A stretch of 64,000 bases of DNA from a virus. Of the stretch, positions 5,045 through 61,026 are shown one piece after another. A model generated the notes under the pieces. That model saw only the letters and a list, made by a program, of their open reading frames with translations. It did not search any database and was not told the origin of the DNA. The position numbers were made by a program, and so were the translations under genes. The stretch is taken from IMG/VR virus record IMGVR_UViG_2918493637_000007; one strand, written 5' to 3'. Position 1 is the first letter of the stretch; every line of letters begins with the position of its first letter.

Positions 5045-5070
5045 TTATAGCGAGCGCGCGTCGGGTTTTG
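5045..5070 (-). promoter_or_regulatory. Phage-specific promoter-like motif
   Basis: Minus strand CAAAACCCGAC-GCGCGCTCG-CTATAA, followed by the operator at 5024-5039. Confidence 0.7.
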
Positions 5071-8500: not shown

Positions 8501-8992
8501 AGCGTCGGAAATCTTCGTGAGTATCTGTGACGCTGACTTGTGCGCGACGACGCTGTGCGCGTCGCTCGTCGCGATTGCGACGTCTGCCGCAGTCACGTTC
8601 GCAAGCTCTGCATAGAGATCGTCGAAGGAGAGCTTGGCGTTGTTGTAGAAGCGCTCCTCGGAGTTGGCGAGCGACAGCAGGCGGTAGAGCGCCATCAGCC
8701 CGGCCTGGGAGAGAACATACCAGGTCACGAAGAACTCCGGCGGCGCCTTCTTGTCCTCCTTGGTCTTGCGCCAGGTGACGTCGTCCACGAGCCGGAGCCG
8801 GCAGCCGATGACGGGCTTGATCCCGGCCTTCTGCGCCTTCTGGGTCAGCTCGATCAGACTGGTCGCCGACATGGTGTCCGTCACGCCGACGGCCTTGGCG
8901 CCGGCTCCAACGGCCCGGTCCACGAGGCTCTCGATCGACAAGATGCTCTCGCCGATCGAAAAATTGGTGCGAGCCGCTAGGACCGCGTGCAT
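5585..8992 (-). CDS. dnaE: DNA polymerase III alpha (family C) with degenerate PHP and C-terminal UDG-family-4-like domain
   Basis: ATG at 8992 with GGAG RBS; [49 protein letters not shown]; C-terminal [25 protein letters not shown]. Confidence 0.95.
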
Positions 8993-9471
8993 GGAGATCT
9001 CCGGTTGTTGGCTTGAACTTTTCGGGTGGCCCAGACGCAGTTGCCTGGCTCGTAGGGGCCGTCGTTGTTCTTCCGCTCGATCGTCAGATTGCGCGGGCGC
9101 TCGCCCATGTCGGCGAGGAAATTCTCGAAGGTCTTCCAGTGCTCGCACACGGTGATCCCGCGGGCGCCGTAATCCTTGTAGGACTCGTTGTTCGGGTTCG
9201 TCGTCCGCTGGATCATGTTGGACCAGCAGACGTAGGTGGGTGAGCGCTTGCTGTGCCCGTGCCGGATGGAGCGGGCGCTCGTCGCTTCGTTCTTGGCGCA
9301 GCCGCAGGACGACGTGTGACCGGACTGGAGATCCCGTCCGGCCGCCCTTGCTGAGCCGCCGCAGGTGCAAAGGCACCTCCAAGCGGCGTTGCCACCCATG
9401 ACGCCGTCGCGCGCCTCTACCGTGAGGCGCCCGAAGGTCTGGCCCGTGAGATCGACCAGCCGGCCCATCAT
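8977..9471 (-). CDS. HNH endonuclease (DLTGQxFGRLTV family)
   Basis: [17 protein letters not shown]...WRCLCTCG...TSSCGC...[12 protein letters not shown]...[20 protein letters not shown]. Confidence 0.88.
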
Positions 9472-10004
9472 TCCGTCCTGAGTGTGAGGCGGCCGTTCTG
9501 CTCGATGGCTGCGCCGAGCGCGGTGAGCGCCTGGAAGGCCTGGGTCGCGTGGGCGGCTGCGGTGCCCTCGCTCCATTCGAGTTTGCGCATGAAGGCGGTC
9601 TTGAGCGTCGCCCGGTCGATGCCGGCCTTCATGTGCAGCAGCAGGTGGCAGGTGACGCGCAGGAAGGCTGGGCTCGTCGTGAACGGGTTCTCGCCGCGCG
9701 AGAGGGCGGCCGTCACCGAGATGCCGGCGCGCTCGATGCGCCCGATCAGCTCCTCGACCTTCTTGGGCAGGCCCTCGGTCAAGACGCCGGTCGCGTGCGC
9801 TTCCGTGGGACCCCGCGGGCGGGGAGGGCGCTGCGCGCGCGGCTCCTTGGGCTTGATGCCGAGCTCGGCGCGCCGCCGCGTGAGCTGCTCGGCGCCGACC
9901 TGCGCGCACTCAGCGGCGAACGGGCACGAGATGCACTCGGCCGCTTCCGCGCGATAGGCGAGGGCGAAGCCGAAGCAGCCCGGACGGAGCATCGAAGTCA
10001 GCAC
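9468..10004 (-). CDS. Hypothetical protein with N-terminal Cys cluster
   Basis: PGCFG...[11 protein letters not shown]; co-oriented with overlapping junctions. Confidence 0.65.
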
Positions 10005-10016
10005 TGACTTACTTCC

Positions 10017-10643
10017 TCAGCGAAGGATCTGCCGCGCGAGGCCTTTGACCTCGCCGTAGATGCGGTTGCGTTCGACCCGGTCCGCACCCATCAGGTCGAG
10101 GACGAGCGAGCCGGTGATGTGGCTGGGCACGCCGGTGCGGATCCCGCGGGCGTTGGCGAACTCGGCCCGGGCCTGGATCGCGGTCATCTCCTCGTAGAGC
10201 GCCGGAGGCGGGTTCGCGAGGAGCTCGACGAACTGGCGCGCCTCGGGGGAGAGGAGGGCGATGTTGCGCTCGAACTCCTGGGCGTCGCCGAGCACGTCGT
10301 CCTGGAGCGGGCTGCCGTCGGCGATCACCTCGTGCAGGTCGGAGCCGTCCTCGTCGCCGTGATCCTCGTCGAGGTCGAGGGCGTTGGAGTGGCCGATCTG
10401 CCGGTCGATCCAGGCGTTGATGTGGTTGCGCATGCCGAGCTGGAGGTAGGCCCCGAACGGCACGCCCTTGGTCGGGTCGAACTTGTCCCGGGCGATCACC
10501 CAGGCGAGCGACAGCTCCGAGACCAAGTCGGCCAGGAGCACGGTGCGCGCGCCGGCCGCGTGCGCCCGCTTCAGGTAGCGGTAGGCGGACCGCTCGACGA
10601 CCTTGCTCCAGTCGCCCCATTGGATCGGGTGGGTGTCGCGCAT
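10017..10643 (-). CDS. Phage-encoded sigma70-family factor (region 2 recognisable)
   Basis: DLVSELSLAWVIARDKFDPTKGVPFGAYLQLGMRNHINAWI matches the sigma70 region 2.2-2.4 pattern (DLxQE...AxxKFDPxxGxxFxTYA..WIR..I); LLSPEARQFVELL resembles the start of region 4. Confidence 0.75.
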   Translation of the reverse strand: MRDTHPIQWGDWSKVVERSAYRYLKRAHAAGARTVLLADLVSELSLAWVIARDKFDPTKGVPFGAYLQLGMRNHINAWIDRQIGHSNALDLDEDHGDEDGSDLHEVIADGSPLQDDVLGDAQEFERNIALLSPEARQFVELLANPPPALYEEMTAIQARAEFANARGIRTGVPSHITGSLVLDLMGADRVERNRIYGEVKGLARQILR

Positions 10644-10647
10644 GGCG

Positions 10648-11874
10648 TTACCCGAAGTAGCGCTGCGCGAGCTGGGAGGCGGCCTCGCGGTCGACCCGGC
10701 TCATGCGGTTCATGAAGCCCTGGCGCAGGCCGGCCGAGTAGTCGGCGCCGCGCATCACGCCGAGCCGGCCCGCGGTGATGAGCTCGCGGGGCGAGATCGT
10801 CATGCCGATCCGGCCGCCCTTGAACGCCTCGCGGATGTCGTTGGCGAACTTCACCAGCTTGGCGGCATCGTCCTTCTTCACGCGCGCCTGGCTGACGATG
10901 ACGGCCGTCTCCACGTCGGGCTCCATGTAGGGAACCTCCTCGACGATGTGCATGCGGGAGTAGTTCGCGGCGTTCTGGATCTGGGTGCCCTGGTAGAGAC
11001 CCGTTTCGTCTCCGCCACCGTTGGTGTTGCCGGTCGCCACGAAGCGGAAGTTCTTGTGCGGGCGGATCACCCGCATGTCGGGCGGCGCGTCCTTGATGAA
11101 CAGCGGCTTGCCCTCGAGGATCGGCTGGTAGACCGACAGGACCGAGGGGAGGGCGAAGTCATACTCGTCGGCGCAGTAGACGTAGCCGTTGAGCATGGCG
11201 ATCGTGAGCGGGCCGGGCTGAAACACGGTCTCGGTGGAGAGCACCGCGATGTCCTCGCCGGTCGCCTGGTTCTTCGTGACGCGCTCGACCGCCTGGACGA
11301 CATACTGCCCGACGATGTGCGCCTCTTCGGTGTTGGCGGTGTGCTGGACCCGCATGAACGGCCGCTTGGTGCGGGCGCAGACTTGCTCGAAGGCGGTGGT
11401 CTTGCCGGTGCCGTGAAAGCCCCAGAAGTAGACGTTCATGCCCATCTCGAGGCCCATGAGCGCCGTCTTCACCAGGTCGAGGTTGAACACGTAGTTCGGG
11501 TCGACGTCCGGCACGAGGGCGAGCGCCTCGGCGTCGTGGCCCTTCATCACCGAGATCAGGATCGGCTCGCCGCGCTTGTTCTTGGTCGCGGGCACGTCGC
11601 CGGTCTCGAACACGGCCGCCAGCGGCATTTTGTCCACGAGCTGTGTGACGGTGCCGTCCTCGGCGGCCTTCTTCTGCTCCACGAGGCGCTCCTTCTGACG
11701 CTTCTCGGCGGCCGGCGACAGCAGCGGCGCGTCGGGGTAGGTGGCGCGGTAGCGCTCCACCGTCCATTCGGGGTGGTGCGTCTTCAGGTGCGCCTGGATG
11801 ACATGGACGCGGGCCCCGTCGAGCAGGCACTCGATCTTGCCGTCGGACAGGGCTGCGGGGGCGGGCGTGTTCAT
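10648..11874 (-). CDS. cobS: CobS-like MoxR AAA+ ATPase with N-terminal Ros/MucR-like zinc finger
   Basis: GFHGTGKTT (Walker A), YCADEYD (Walker B), FRFVATGNTNGGGDETGLYQGT, ISPREL; N-terminal IECLLDG...HLKTHH. Confidence 0.88.
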   Translation of the reverse strand: MNTPAPAALSDGKIECLLDGARVHVIQAHLKTHHPEWTVERYRATYPDAPLLSPAAEKRQKERLVEQKKAAEDGTVTQLVDKMPLAAVFETGDVPATKNKRGEPILISVMKGHDAEALALVPDVDPNYVFNLDLVKTALMGLEMGMNVYFWGFHGTGKTTAFEQVCARTKRPFMRVQHTANTEEAHIVGQYVVQAVERVTKNQATGEDIAVLSTETVFQPGPLTIAMLNGYVYCADEYDFALPSVLSVYQPILEGKPLFIKDAPPDMRVIRPHKNFRFVATGNTNGGGDETGLYQGTQIQNAANYSRMHIVEEVPYMEPDVETAVIVSQARVKKDDAAKLVKFANDIREAFKGGRIGMTISPRELITAGRLGVMRGADYSAGLRQGFMNRMSRVDREAASQLAQRYFG

Positions 11875-12000
11875 CGGGTGGAACTCTCCTGGGTTGTGCG
11901 CTGGGTGCGCTCTCTGTGTGCGAGTCAGTTATCGCTGATCTCGTCGAGGGACACAAGTCAGTCCTGACTTACATTTCGGGGTCCCGCGACGATCCGGCTG

Positions 12001-14391
12001 TCAGCTCAGCAGGATCCGCTTGAGCTCGCCCATCACGCACTTCGGCAGGTCGGCCGCGTTGTTCAGGAGCGCGAACTTGGGGAAGTAGTGCCGCGGCGCG
12101 TCGGTCAGGATGCCGATGCCGACGGTCTCGATGCCGCGCGCCTCGACCGCCTTCACCGTCTCCTTGAGGTGCTTGCGCAGCGCGGGCACGTCGCCGTCGG
12201 CGACCGGGTTGCCGTCGGACAGCACCAGGAGGACCTTGCGGGTCTCCTTGCGCCGCAGCAGGCGGTAGGCGGCGTATTCGAGGCTCTCGCCGTCGACGTT
12301 CGAGCCCATGAAGTCCTGGTGCGGGGCGGCCGCGAACCGGCGCTTGATCTCGGAGGTCAGCCGTTCGTCGAAGCCCTTGTAGACGGGCATGTAGATCGGC
12401 TCGTAGCGGGTGTAGGGGATCCCGGCGGCGATCGCGGCCTCGTGCGCCTCCTTGATCTCCTTGCCCCAGGGGTGCCACTTCGTGGTGAAGCCGAGCACCT
12501 CGTGCTGGATCCCGACCCGCTCGAGGGTGGTCGAGAGCGCGTAGCCCGCCTCCATCGCGGTCTGGACCTTGATGCCTTCCATCGACCCGGAGTTGTCGAT
12601 CAGGAGGCCGACGGCGACGTCCTTGCTCACGTTGACGTGGAGCCGGCGGAACACGCGGTCGTCGCCCGCGGCCAGGCGGTGCAGGCCGGCCGTGTGCAGG
12701 CGGCCCGAGCGGAAGCCCGGGACCTTCACGCTCTGAGAGCGCGCGGCCATCATGCGCTGGATCTCCTTCTGCATCACGCCGACCGACTGGCGCGTGCGGT
12801 CGTCGAGCGCCGTCAGCCAGGCGTCCTGGTAGTTCTCCATGTCTGTTGGGAATGGCTCGATGACGTCGAAGTCCTTGGTGTAGATACGGTAGGCGGCGCT
12901 CGCGGTCATGTCGCGGGCCTCCTCGCCGATCTTGGCGGCGATCGCGTCGTCGTAGTCGACAGCGCCACCAACCAGCAGGACCGGGCCGCCGGCGTTCGGG
13001 TCGTCGTTGCCCTCGCCCTCGGCGTCCTCGTCGTGCTGCTCTACCGGACCCTGGTCGCCGGCCGTGTCTTCCTCGCCCGCATCAGCGCCGCCCGCTGCAT
13101 CGCCTTCACCGTCCGCAGCCTCCCCATCAGCCTCGTCCGATCCGTCGCCGCCCTCGCCGTCGGCGTCAGCGGTCTCACTAGGCTCATCGTCGCCGTGATC
13201 GTCCTCATCATCGTGCTCACCGGAAGCGCCAGAGGCTCCGACCTCGCCTTCCTCCTCGCCACGATCTCCTTCCTGATCGTCGCCATCTTCCACGGGCGAA
13301 CCGGCACCATCGTCCTCAGACGCAGGTTCCTCGCCCTTATCGGCATCATCGCCATCATCGGCGGCGCCATCGCTCGGCTCGCCGGTATCGTCCTGGCCCT
13401 CGAGCTCGCCTTCGCCAGCCGCCCCTTCGCCGGGTTCGTCGTCCTCGGTCTCGGGTGCCTCGTCTCCACCAGCCTCATCGCCCGAAGCGTCAGCATCCTC
13501 GTCCTTGTCCTCCTCGCCAGCGTCGTCGCTCTCACCGGGCTTGCCAGCGTCCGACTGCTCGTCCTTCGGCTCCTCGGCCGGACCCTTACCCTCGTCCTCG
13601 GGCGTGTCACCCTCGCCGCCGTTCCCACCCTGCGGCTCGTTCTCGGGCTGCTCCTCGGGCTGCTCCTCATCCTCGCTCGAGGGCGGGGGAGGGGGCGGCG
13701 CGGGCATCTTGGGAGCGGGCGGGGGCGGCGGCGCCTTCAGGGCCTCGCTGATGCGCTTGGCGAGCTCGAAGCACTCCCAGGTGCTCTTGAGCTTGGCGAC
13801 CTCGGCGACGAACGGCGCGAGGCGCTTGAACTTCGGCCCGAGCTCCGGGTGAGCCTCGAAGGCGCCGGCCTCCATGAACTCCTGGAACAGCCGCTGGCCG
13901 GAGTAGGCGCGGAAGGCGGGAACGAACAGCGCCGAGAACGCGGTGTCGACGTCGCCCTTGGCGAGCGCTGCCGTGTAGACCGGCGTGGTAATGTCGGAGA
14001 TGAAGAAGCGGTGGAGCTGCTGGAGGTTAAAGCCCGAGCCCGCGAAGCGCCGGGACATCTGGCGCTCGATGAAGGTGTCCTCAAGGGTGTTCCAGATCGC
14101 GCGCAGGTGGGGGAAGTCCCTCTGCGCCTTGTCAATCGCGGCATGCACCGAGAAGTCGGTCTCGAGGATGTGGGCGACCTCGTGGTCGATGAAGCCTTGG
14201 ATCGCGAGGATCAGCTCCTTGCTCGCGTTGTCCGGCAGGTAGGGGATGTTGACCACCTCGGGCTTGTGGGTGGCCCGGTTGGTGCCGACGAACGCCTTGG
14301 TGCCCCGCTGCGTTACCTTGAGACCCATCCCGGCGAGGAGCTGGGTGACTTTCACCACAACCTCTCGCAGGATCCGCACCTCGTCATTCAT
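12001..14391 (-). CDS. cobT: CobT-like vWA protein with N-terminal HExxH and long acidic linker
   Basis: ATG at 14391 with GGAGAG RBS; DHEVAH; LLIDNSGSM (MIDAS), VLSDGNP; adjacent to the CobS-like ATPase. Confidence 0.85.
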   Translation of the reverse strand: MNDEVRILREVVVKVTQLLAGMGLKVTQRGTKAFVGTNRATHKPEVVNIPYLPDNASKELILAIQGFIDHEVAHILETDFSVHAAIDKAQRDFPHLRAIWNTLEDTFIERQMSRRFAGSGFNLQQLHRFFISDITTPVYTAALAKGDVDTAFSALFVPAFRAYSGQRLFQEFMEAGAFEAHPELGPKFKRLAPFVAEVAKLKSTWECFELAKRISEALKAPPPPPAPKMPAPPPPPPSSEDEEQPEEQPENEPQGGNGGEGDTPEDEGKGPAEEPKDEQSDAGKPGESDDAGEEDKDEDADASGDEAGGDEAPETEDDEPGEGAAGEGELEGQDDTGEPSDGAADDGDDADKGEEPASEDDGAGSPVEDGDDQEGDRGEEEGEVGASGASGEHDDEDDHGDDEPSETADADGEGGDGSDEADGEAADGEGDAAGGADAGEEDTAGDQGPVEQHDEDAEGEGNDDPNAGGPVLLVGGAVDYDDAIAAKIGEEARDMTASAAYRIYTKDFDVIEPFPTDMENYQDAWLTALDDRTRQSVGVMQKEIQRMMAARSQSVKVPGFRSGRLHTAGLHRLAAGDDRVFRRLHVNVSKDVAVGLLIDNSGSMEGIKVQTAMEAGYALSTTLERVGIQHEVLGFTTKWHPWGKEIKEAHEAAIAAGIPYTRYEPIYMPVYKGFDERLTSEIKRRFAAAPHQDFMGSNVDGESLEYAAYRLLRRKETRKVLLVLSDGNPVADGDVPALRKHLKETVKAVEARGIETVGIGILTDAPRHYFPKFALLNNAADLPKCVMGELKRILLS

Positions 14392-14427
14392 AAGTTGTCT
14401 CTCCAAGTCAGTAGTGACTTACTACTG

Positions 14428-14450
14428 TATAGACGACGTAAATTGGTTAC
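14428..14450 (-). promoter_or_regulatory. Degenerate copy of the phage promoter motif upstream of cobT
   Basis: Minus strand GTAACCAAT-TTACGTCGT-CTATA (9-nt spacer), followed by the operator at 14405-14420. Confidence 0.5.
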
Positions 14451-14695: not shown

Positions 14696-14826
14696 CGCTT
14701 CCGCCTATTCCCAGGGACATGAGTCATTGCTGACTTGCTATACGCGTCAAAAATTGAGCCACCCTTTTGGGCGGCTGGCTGGCATTCCGATGTCGCGCCC
14801 GGACCGGGCGCGGTTGCGTATATGGT

Positions 14827-15613: not shown

Positions 15614-16000
15614 TTGATCTGCTTGCGGCTGCAAGGTTGTCAGATCCGCATGGCGCGCGCCGCGCTGCGGTTATCGCTTACTGAATTGGCCGAGTGCTCA
15701 GGTGTCAGCGAAAAGACCATACGACGATGTGAAGCAGTAGACGGCCAGCCGCCGGTCGCGGACCATTCCCTCGGACTGATCGGCAAGGCGCTGAACGACC
15801 GCGGGGTGCGGTTCATGGAAGGCCGTGGTCGACAATGGGGACCGGGCTGCATTCTGGACTGGAACCCCGAGATGGGCGACCGCCCCGAGGTTCATGCGCT
15901 AATTGCGCGGGAAGGGGATCCCGATGCCGGTGGGGCGAAACTACCATGGCCGCCGCTGCCCAGACCGAAACCTCCGTCGAAGTTCGGACCGAAACGTTAA
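15614..16000 (+). CDS. XRE-family HTH regulator
   Basis: QIRMARAALRLSLTELAECSGVSEKTIRRCE...ALNDRGVRF, typical alphaproteobacterial XRE; divergent from 14827-15327. Confidence 0.8.
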   Translation: MICLRLQGCQIRMARAALRLSLTELAECSGVSEKTIRRCEAVDGQPPVADHSLGLIGKALNDRGVRFMEGRGRQWGPGCILDWNPEMGDRPEVHALIAREGDPDAGGAKLPWPPLPRPKPPSKFGPKR

Positions 16001-33375: not shown

Positions 33376-33492
33376 TCGGGGCTCCTGTGGCCGGGCAGAG
33401 CCGGCATCGGTAAGTCAGTGGTGACTTATCATAGCCGAGGAGGAGCCGGCGATCCAGAGGCTCGGGAGCGCTTCCTACCCCGGATGCCCAAC

Positions 33493-33558
33493 GCCATCGC
33501 CCTGTATGTAGATAATCAGTAGTAGTCTAATACTAATATCTAAATACAGGCCGATGGC
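33493..33558. repeat. Inverted-repeat element with AT-rich core, copy 1
   Basis: GCCATCGCCCTGTATGTAGATA...TATCTAAATACAGGCCGATGGC (22-bp arms, 2 mismatches). Confidence 0.85.
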
Positions 33559-33573
33559 ACCGGGAAGTCTTGG

Positions 33574-58907: not shown

Positions 58908-58936
58908 ATAATAAGTCAGCGCTGACTTGTACGCAA
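58908..58936 (-). promoter_or_regulatory. Sigma70-like promoter with the operator filling its spacer (portal)
   Basis: TTGCGT-17nt-TATTAT; the spacer contains the perfect operator at 58913-58928. Confidence 0.65.
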
Positions 58937-60950: not shown

Positions 60951-61026
60951 TCCGGCGCCATCGGCCTGTATGTATTATATAGTTGTTTCTTTAGTAGTTA
61001 TATACATTCAGGCCGATGGCGCCGGA
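60951..61026. repeat. Inverted-repeat element with AT-rich core, copy 2
   Basis: TCCGGCGCCATCGGCCTG...CAGGCCGATGGCGCCGGA (18-bp perfect arms) plus TATGTA/TACATT extension. Confidence 0.88.

Follow-up and report, generated by a model that had tools for sequence, protein, structure and literature searches.

A minimal sigma-70-family factor, its four-cysteine neighbour and a short-spaced promoter motif on a Methylobacterium-type phage-plasmid

Introduction

Several bacteriophages encode sigma factors that are smaller than the primary sigma factor of the host, among them gp28 and gp34 of SPO1, gp36 of phiEco32 and gp55 of T4. These proteins are thought to switch the host core polymerase to phage-specific promoters, and phage sigma factors such as T4 gp55 and SPO1 gp34 typically serve the late genes; the T4 pair gp55/gp33 is also a precedent for sigma functions split over two proteins. 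Here we describe a phage-borne gene for a 208-amino-acid sigma factor, found in a 64,000-nucleotide stretch of viral DNA (IMG/VR virus record IMGVR_UViG_2918493637_000007; this whole stretch is called the window below), together with a class of short-spaced promoters that it may serve. The protein is like the factors of SPO1, phiEco32 and T4 (gp55 with gp33) in being phage-encoded and smaller than the host primary sigma; no sequence relationship to any of them, however, was seen in any search made here. Unlike T4 gp55, it keeps a sigma-4-like domain, and it is carried by a phage-plasmid that is temperate rather than virulent.

Among phages with a name, the closest include RHEph10, RHph_N1_10, B1VFA and V1VFA-S, all of Rhizobium. 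They carry an orthologous sigma gene (34–37% identity over 90–97% of the length) that is annotated as RNA polymerase sigma-70 factor, in the same gene order cobT-cobS-sigma-4Cys-dnaE and with RepC nearby. The sigma label in these phages is an automatic or homology annotation, and in the literature we found no paper testing the sigma factor of this group or its promoters. The locus described here differs from the Rhizobium phage group in host clade (Methylobacterium and Methylorubrum contigs) and in GC content.

The window is colinear, at 90–96% identity, with a circular contig of 116,758 bp (G001:C3) from a complete 6.7-Mb genome, from which it differs in a stretch of ~1.0 kb (about 105.6–106.7 kb on G001:C3) and in several smaller ones. 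Close homologues of the sigma factor are encoded on contigs of 107–119 kb, including those of Methylorubrum extorquens and Methylobacterium, and a RepC gene is present on the relatives' contigs L002 and L010. The element also has a complete siphovirus-type gene set, with portal, large terminase, tape measure and tail J. The source is a ~117-kb circular RepC phage-plasmid of Methylobacterium-type bacteria and belongs to the pLM21S1/RHEph10 group, as RepC, tailed-phage genes and cobT-cobS occur together on a circular replicon of ~115 kb. This group has been described as plasmid-like prophages (PMC4447125) and is also mentioned in a later paper (PMC7969092). Phage-plasmids of alphaproteobacteria are barely studied, and this includes the switch between plasmid life and lytic growth.

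A divergent member of the sigma-70 family

The gene and the parts of its product, as delimited by alignment and structure prediction (confidence given as the predicted local distance difference test, pLDDT), are as follows.

10017–10643, minus strand: sigma factor gene, an open reading frame of 208 amino acids, identified by Pfam Sigma70_r2, Foldseek and annotated orthologues
10386–10619, minus strand: predicted sigma-2 domain, residues 9–86, regions 2.1–2.4 (AlphaFold2 helices 9–29, 37–54 and 63–86)
10305–10385, minus strand: predicted acidic disordered linker, residues 87–113, region 3.2-like (pLDDT below 50 for 86–109)
10023–10304, minus strand: predicted sigma-4-like C-terminal domain, residues 114–207, five helices (model ma965d8672069, pLDDT 88)
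10119–10205, minus strand: conserved inserted helix and loop, residues ~147–175, probably between the region 4.1 helix and the helix-turn-helix

The sigma gene starts with an ATG 4 nucleotides past the stop codon of the cobS-like gene, and its GC content at third codon positions (0.96) is that of real genes in this window of 67% GC. Pfam Sigma70_r2 (PF04542) matches residues 17–76 of the protein with an E-value of 6.9e-7 and 29.4 bits (curated cut-off 24), and matches all 16 aligned family members (best E 1.4e-10); PHROG 351 ('RNA polymerase sigma factor') also matches, with E 5.7e-8. When a profile of 85 diverged family members was compared with the PDB, it found chains of SigA, RpoD and RpoS with E-values down to 9e-13. 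The matches fall into two separate stretches that correspond to region 2, where the profile aligns with RpoS 92–164 and with region 2 of SigA, and to regions 3.2–4.1, where profile positions 82–142 align with SigA 277–339, that is, with the region 3.2 linker leading into the region 4.1 helix, around LSPxAR. A Foldseek search of the PDB with the full-length AlphaFold2 model (built on 16 homologues; mean pLDDT 79) gave only sigma factors among the top 50 matches (E from 7e-4, probability ~1). The family comprises at least 911 cluster representatives at E ≤1e-3 and 163 at E ≤1e-30, nearly all of 200–220 amino acids and matched over their full length. The full-length sigma models of NCBIfam, when run on the 208-amino-acid protein, all stayed far under their cut-offs, and the ECF superfamily model TIGR02937 reached 20.2 bits, the cut-off being 42.9. 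Because region 2, regions 3.2–4.1 and the sigma-4 fold agree as three separate lines, we regard the protein, from its sequence, as a genuine sigma-70-family factor and the assignment as secure. As a kind, a sigma factor is nothing new, and relatives of this one are already labelled sigma.

The AlphaFold2 model consists of three N-terminal helices (residues 9–86), a disordered acidic stretch (86–109) and five C-terminal helices (114–207). In the HMMER alignment D39 and E43 correspond to the acidic core-binding residues in region 2.2 of RpoS and RpoD, and Y66 to the conserved tyrosine of region 2.3; D39 is invariant and E43 nearly so in the 85 sequences. The Trp-Trp pair that primary sigma factors have in region 2.3 is replaced by L69-G70 in the same alignment. 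Region 2.4 and Y66 are strongly conserved across at least 85 diverged sequences, with H74 and N76 invariant, and the last C-terminal helix varies within the family. No sigma-3 domain was found: only ~27 disordered residues separate sigma-2 from the C-terminal domain, and Sigma70_r3 matches none of the 16 members.

The C-terminal domain escaped detection by sequence models: even with the E-value limit relaxed to 10, none of the 16 members matched the Pfam models for region 3, region 4 or Sigma70_r4_2. We modelled the C-terminal 101 residues (108–208) alone with AlphaFold (pLDDT 88). Foldseek of this model against the PDB gave no match at E 0.001. VIA-align, run against 48,161 PDB representatives, placed chains of sigma factors in its top 27 rows, nearly all of them matched over region 4 (Z 6.3–4.5, root-mean-square deviation ~3 Å, 57–75 residues aligned), and LuxR-type helix-turn-helix proteins ranked only beneath them. 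Among AlphaFold DB clusters the model matched unnamed proteins of ~200 amino acids (TM 0.77) and then weak sigma-4 entries. Relative to a four-helix sigma-4, the models have one extra helix (147–165) within an insert of ~20–30 residues, and P145, P146, A155, R159, R166 and G167 in the region of this insert show no or almost no variation across the family. From the spacing in the sequence we infer that the insert follows the region 4.1 helix and precedes the helix-turn-helix. We read the predicted layout as sigma-2, a region 3.2-like linker and a divergent sigma-4 with an added conserved helix, without sigma-3.

An earlier reading of the letters of the window (the original prediction) had proposed a phage-encoded minimal sigma factor of 208 amino acids, with a convincing region-2 segment and a C-terminus only weakly like region 4. 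The open reading frame at 10017–10643 yields exactly the protein sequence quoted there. The region-2 segment is borne out by the Pfam match above the cut-off, its recurrence in 16 of 16 members and the match to PHROG 351, and a sigma-2 is likewise found by profile alignment to region 2 of RpoS and SigA and in the top 50 Foldseek matches. The description of the C-terminus as atypical was also apt, given a sigma-4-like fold by VIA-align and the lack of Pfam region 3 or region 4 matches in 16 members, and 'minimal' fits a phage-borne sigma-2, linker and sigma-4 without sigma-3. Two points are additional to that prediction: the orthologues already annotated as sigma, and a conserved, sometimes fused partner protein with four cysteines.

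Among known sigma factors, the protein shares with the ECF class (group 4) a make-up of sigma-2 and sigma-4 only, a size of ~200 amino acids, the loss of the Trp-Trp pair and a small co-transcribed partner after the sigma gene. Unlike ECF factors, it scores less than half of the TIGR02937 cut-off, has no Sigma70_r4_2 match and carries an inserted sigma-4 helix, and its best sequence matches are sigma factors of groups 1–2 (SigA, RpoS), including the region 3.2-like linker. From the sigma factors of groups 1–3 (RpoD, RpoS and FliA-like), in turn, it differs in lacking a sigma-3 domain.

A short-spaced promoter class

The candidate promoters are defined by a motif, CCRAC-N9-CTATA, whose exact copies in the window are the following.

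5046–5064, minus strand: consensus promoter CCGAC-N9-CTATA, downstream of dnaE; kept in the relatives L002/L012, L011 and L014
3985–4003, 23621–23639, 27184–27202 and 27987–28005, minus strand: the other exact copies

These five copies, where 0.02 are expected, all lie on the minus strand, which is the gene strand. With up to one mismatch, the whole element has 16 copies on the gene strand and one on the other. Most copies of the element stand 30–70 nucleotides ahead of a start codon, and all of them are in the parts for replication and nucleotide metabolism, with none in the structural block at 32–90 kb. In the 6.7-Mb host genome, five of the six exact copies are on the 117-kb element. A looser form, YGCTATA with CC, has 9 of its 20 copies on the element (0.117 Mb) and 11 in the 6.58-Mb chromosome, where it is at or below chance; this count used a pattern with one extra N, and the enrichment is valid for CC(C)-type sites only. 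The short-spaced motif of the original prediction is thus real (five exact copies, all on one strand); it is strand-specific, occurs only in non-structural operons and is nearly exclusive to the element.

The motif recurs in relatives whose sigma factor is at least 51% identical. A scan with a position weight matrix of the window motif gave few or no matches in relatives with a sigma identity of ~47% or less, and likewise in L013 (57%). Anchoring on CTATA in the distant relatives showed that the pentamer has diverged and the spacing has been kept. In 13 relatives (sigma factors 34–57% identical), CC lies exactly at −14/−13 in 24 of 37 intergenic CTATA sites on the gene strand, as opposed to 3 of 79 control sites (Fisher p 1.5e-12), and every one of the 24 CC-bearing sites has a G right before CTATA that is itself preceded by C or T. 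The pentamer differs by lineage, being CCGAC, CCGAG or CCGCT in close relatives and CCTTG, CCTCA or CCAGA in distant ones. The fixed position of CC and the YG before CTATA define a family-wide promoter, CC-N10-YGCTATA. No hexamer is conserved in it at the distance where a canonical −35 would stand, and no canonical sigma-70 promoter was found on the minus strand between 3800 and 16000. In the Rhizobium phage RHph_N1_10 the exact motif was not recovered, and only two clear CCGAC-N10-CTATTC sites were seen. ECF promoters have a spacing of ~16–17 bp, in contrast to the 9-bp gap of the candidate promoter here.

A conserved partner with four cysteines

Directly downstream of the sigma gene lies the gene of the partner, whose start is embedded in a palindrome.

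9468–10004, minus strand: partner gene, 178 amino acids (PHROG 3616, no Pfam family)
9995–10010, palindromic, no strand: perfect palindrome AAGTCA-N4-TGACTT between the sigma stop codon and the partner gene, with the GTG start of the partner in its 4-nucleotide centre

The partner contains the motif C-X13-C-X2-C-X5-C, in the form PGC(Y/F)G...C-X2-C-X5-C, whose cysteines are invariant in 17 diverged sequences. Next come a basic linker and then a C-terminal domain that is conserved and, by its predicted structure, possibly winged-helix-like; the structure matches of the partner in the Atlas outside its own family are all weak (TM 0.31–0.41). The spacing C-Xn-C-X2-C-X5-C is the pattern of WhiB-like proteins and of the iron–sulphur loop of endonuclease III, and the model of this loop (Pfam EndIII_4Fe-2S) matches 3 of the 17 partner members weakly. 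No homology of the partner to WhiB, RsoA, ZAS or known anti-sigma domains was detected. As in SigO-RsoA of B. subtilis, in the WhiB-like [4Fe-4S] proteins with sigma-A region 4 and in the ZAS anti-sigma factors, a small cysteine-rich protein is genetically coupled to a sigma factor; unlike WhiB, RsoA and ZAS, the partner has 178 amino acids and a separate, possibly winged-helix-like domain.

Thirteen relatives have sequence beyond the sigma gene; in 12 of them the partner gene is its direct neighbour, and the two genes often overlap or leave almost no gap. In the thirteenth, locus L021 (L021:764-1936), sigma factor and partner form one frame of 390 codons. The same fusion is present, independently, in the database proteins P0075, P0083 and P0061 (353–395 amino acids), whose C-terminal halves match the partner with E-values of 2e-8 to 3e-38. 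Such natural fusions argue for a joint action of sigma factor and partner, in which the partner would either regulate sigma or read DNA as a second subunit. The adjacency and the fusion, which are new in this analysis, suggest binding of the two proteins and hence a two-part sigma factor or a sigma/regulator module.

L002 and L010 likewise show the overlap of the palindrome with the start of the partner gene. Folded into a hairpin in the RNA, the palindrome at 9995–10010 could gate translation of the partner.

The sigma operon and its operator-like palindromes

All 14 informative relatives share the gene order cobT-cobS-sigma-4Cys protein-dnaE. In the window the genes of this operon are tightly packed, except for a 126-nucleotide gap between cobT and cobS and a variable HNH-like open reading frame before dnaE. 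Upstream of sigma the features are:

10648–11874, minus strand: cobS-like gene of an AAA+ ATPase (Pfam AAA_5 and CbbQ_C, PHROG 249), directly upstream of sigma
12001–14391, minus strand: cobT-like vWA gene, first large gene of the operon (CobT and CobT_C domains in orthologues)
14405–14420, palindromic, no strand: perfect palindrome AAGTCA-N4-TGACTT, operator-like, 7 nucleotides after CTATA and spanning the expected transcription start
14428–14446, minus strand: degenerate promoter copy CCAAT-N9-CTATA, upstream of cobT

The likely start of cobT is the ATG at 14391, which is preceded by GGAGAG. A terminator-like hairpin at 14776–14757 is followed, in this order, by a small open reading frame, CCAAT-N9-CTATA, the palindrome and cobT. 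At the same site the relatives have CCGAT-N9-CTATA (G001:C3) and CCGAT-N9-ATATA (L002), and the arrangement is kept in both. It had been claimed that the operon is headed by a degenerate copy of the motif and an operator, and this is indeed what stands just upstream of cobT.

The palindrome AAGTCA-N4-TGACTT is not special to this operon. With up to two mismatches, it occurs 26 times in the window (0.5 expected), from 1343 to 63715, in intergenic gaps of all modules, replication as well as structural; its extended form is ATAAGTCA...TGACTTAT. Often a copy directly follows the CTATA of a motif promoter or falls between two sigma-70-like hexamers, as in TTGCGT-N17-TATTAT at 58908–58936, before the portal gene. 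By analogy, the dispersed copies are reminiscent of dispersed operators or stoperators. With 26 sites in the window, the palindrome is not enough on its own to establish a feedback switch on sigma, and the repressor-gated positive feedback on the sigma operon that had been proposed is possible. An XRE-like helix-turn-helix protein is encoded at 15614–16000 on the plus strand, opposite to the sigma operon, in a region of low GC (58%); it matches HTH_31 with E 1e-4, under the cut-off, and is a candidate repressor for the palindromes.

What the sigma factor may read

The related element G001:C3 has one gene with a Sigma70_r2 match, and no second sigma gene was found. The large open reading frames of the element encode the tape measure, tail J, tail fibre, ribonucleotide reductase, SbcC, portal and terminase. 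As the CTATA-purine end of the motif recalls promoters of the T7 class, we also considered a single-subunit polymerase. A search of G001 for a T7-type polymerase (PF00940) had no match, which is weak, since the search control gave no signal anywhere; as the large open reading frames are otherwise identified, this candidate was dropped. The sigma factor is the only element-encoded transcription specificity factor that we identified.

It is plausible, with a probability that we put at about 0.5, that the phage sigma factor reads the CC-N10-YGCTATA promoter class. The sigma factor would be co-transcribed with cobT, cobS, the four-cysteine protein and dnaE from the weak motif copy, which is overlapped by the palindromic operator, and would bind the host core RNA polymerase, most likely via region 2.2. 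The resulting holoenzyme would be steered to the private promoters of the element (CCGAC-N9-CTATA here), ahead of operons for replication and nucleotide metabolism. There, the conserved region 2.3/2.4 would read GCTATA, and the variable C-terminal module, which may include the adjacent four-cysteine, possibly winged-helix-like partner, would read the variable CCnnn at a distance shorter by one helical turn than that of an ordinary −35 and, to our knowledge, of any known −35. The atypical C-terminus could then explain the short spacing, as the original prediction had it. We count in support that the element has a single sigma-like gene, no phage polymerase that we could find and an essentially private motif, that the short spacing of this motif stays fixed from relative to relative, and that the two parts of the motif run parallel to the two parts of the protein, the constant GCTATA to the invariant region 2.4 (H74, N76) and the variable CCnnn to the variable last helix.

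A number of observations weigh against this proposal. Y-G-C-TATA resembles an extended −10, so that host RpoD might fire these sites without a −35; the housekeeping −10 of alphaproteobacteria is GCTANAWC or CTATAT, which the −10 part of the motif resembles. A sigma-4 docked on the beta flap normally sets a spacer of ~16–18 bp, even in two-domain ECF sigma factors, and we know of no sigma geometry that explains a 9-bp spacing. The predicted sigma-4 is assigned from moderate Z-scores (≤6.3), with Foldseek alone not significant. Many motif copies have a palindrome of their own after CTATA, which would be redundant if all of them needed a repressed sigma factor, and which makes most sense if the host polymerase would otherwise use these promoters. 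Moreover, the sigma operon relies on a motif copy of its own, so that primer transcription by a host sigma factor would be required.

Alternatively, the protein would be a real sigma factor for another class of promoters, most likely those of the late (structural and lysis) genes, and the motif promoters would be extended −10 promoters of host RpoD that a repressor bound to the palindromes silences in the plasmid state. We consider this possible, but less probable. Before CTATA the intergenic sites of the relatives have TG in 13 of 37 cases and G in 29 of 37, which gives them a TGnTATA-type look, and the operator palindromes directly after many motif copies are as expected for promoters that the host polymerase would otherwise fire. 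The 36-kb structural block has no motif copy and hence needs another signal, and two AT-rich inverted-repeat elements lie upstream of the packaging genes and of the 33-kb gene group. In the structural block, however, no shared late-promoter motif could be defined: some palindromes lie in the spacers of sigma-70-like hexamers, and there is no consistent promoter class. Further, YGCTATA with CC is no more frequent in the host chromosome than chance predicts (CC(C)-type sites), the motif promoters have no −35 at canonical spacing, and reading by RpoD leaves unexplained both the fixed position of CC and its co-variation with the divergence of sigma. The protein might instead be a decoy or modulator that occupies the host core polymerase (shut-off), or a docking subunit for the four-cysteine partner. 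We think this quite unlikely: the loss of the Trp-Trp pair for strand opening (L69-G70), a sigma-4 too divergent for detection by sequence and the natural fusion to a second, possibly winged-helix-like protein would all suit such a role, but ECF sigma factors also do without the Trp pair and are functional, the conservation of region 2.4 and Y66 in at least 85 sequences suggests a DNA-reading role, and a C-terminal helix-turn-helix fold is kept according to VIA-align. That the sigma likeness is vestigial or due to chance, in a protein with an unrelated role in replication, is very improbable indeed; the gene is embedded in a replication block conserved in 14 of 14 relatives and the full-length NCBIfam models stay far under their cut-offs, yet all 16 members have Pfam region 2, and region 2, regions 3.2–4.1 and the sigma-4 fold all point to sigma.

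A more specific form of the proposal that the sigma factor reads the motif makes it and its partner a two-part initiation factor, in which sigma-2 would read GCTATA, the partner and/or the insert would read CCnnn 9 bp upstream, and gating by metal or redox state would be possible. We hold this form to be doubtful. If true, it would imply a position of sigma-4 or of the partner on RNA polymerase of an undescribed kind, and the metal or redox state of a cluster (possibly iron–sulphur or zinc) might gate the passage from plasmid maintenance to lytic replication. The interest of the system lies in a variant sigma-4, a conserved and occasionally fused partner, and a private class of short-spaced promoters kept over a large family. 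Should the sigma factor, with its partner, read the short-spaced promoters, this would amount to a promoter geometry new to bacterial RNA polymerase, and the sigma factor and its promoter would be an orthogonal pair for the engineering of Methylobacterium.

Further features of the locus

Some smaller observations concern the operon and the structural block. Residues 7–59 of the cobS-like protein weakly match the ROS/MucR zinc finger (PF05443, E 5e-4, under the cut-off). The gap between cobT and cobS (11875–12000) contains a long inverted repeat or hairpin (CGTCGCGGGAC...GTCCCTCGACG) around one copy of the palindrome. From a ~94% relative there is a metatranscriptome contig that runs from dnaE to cobS and ends at 11953, beside this palindrome, with the depth dropping upstream; we did not use it as evidence of expression, as contigs cannot show starts or ends and carry-over of DNA is possible. 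The open reading frame at 8990–9466 (minus strand), between the partner gene and dnaE, encodes a Cys/His-rich product that is HNH-like by eye and has no Pfam match. In the contig of one relative it is swapped for 211 unrelated letters (joint 8992–9471), and it looks like a mobile insertion within the operon. The two AT-rich elements, at 60960–61026 and 33490–33560, have cores of ~40 bp with the same flanking inverted repeat (GCCATCGGCCTG...CAGGCCGATGGC) and are candidates for late promoters or regulator sites.

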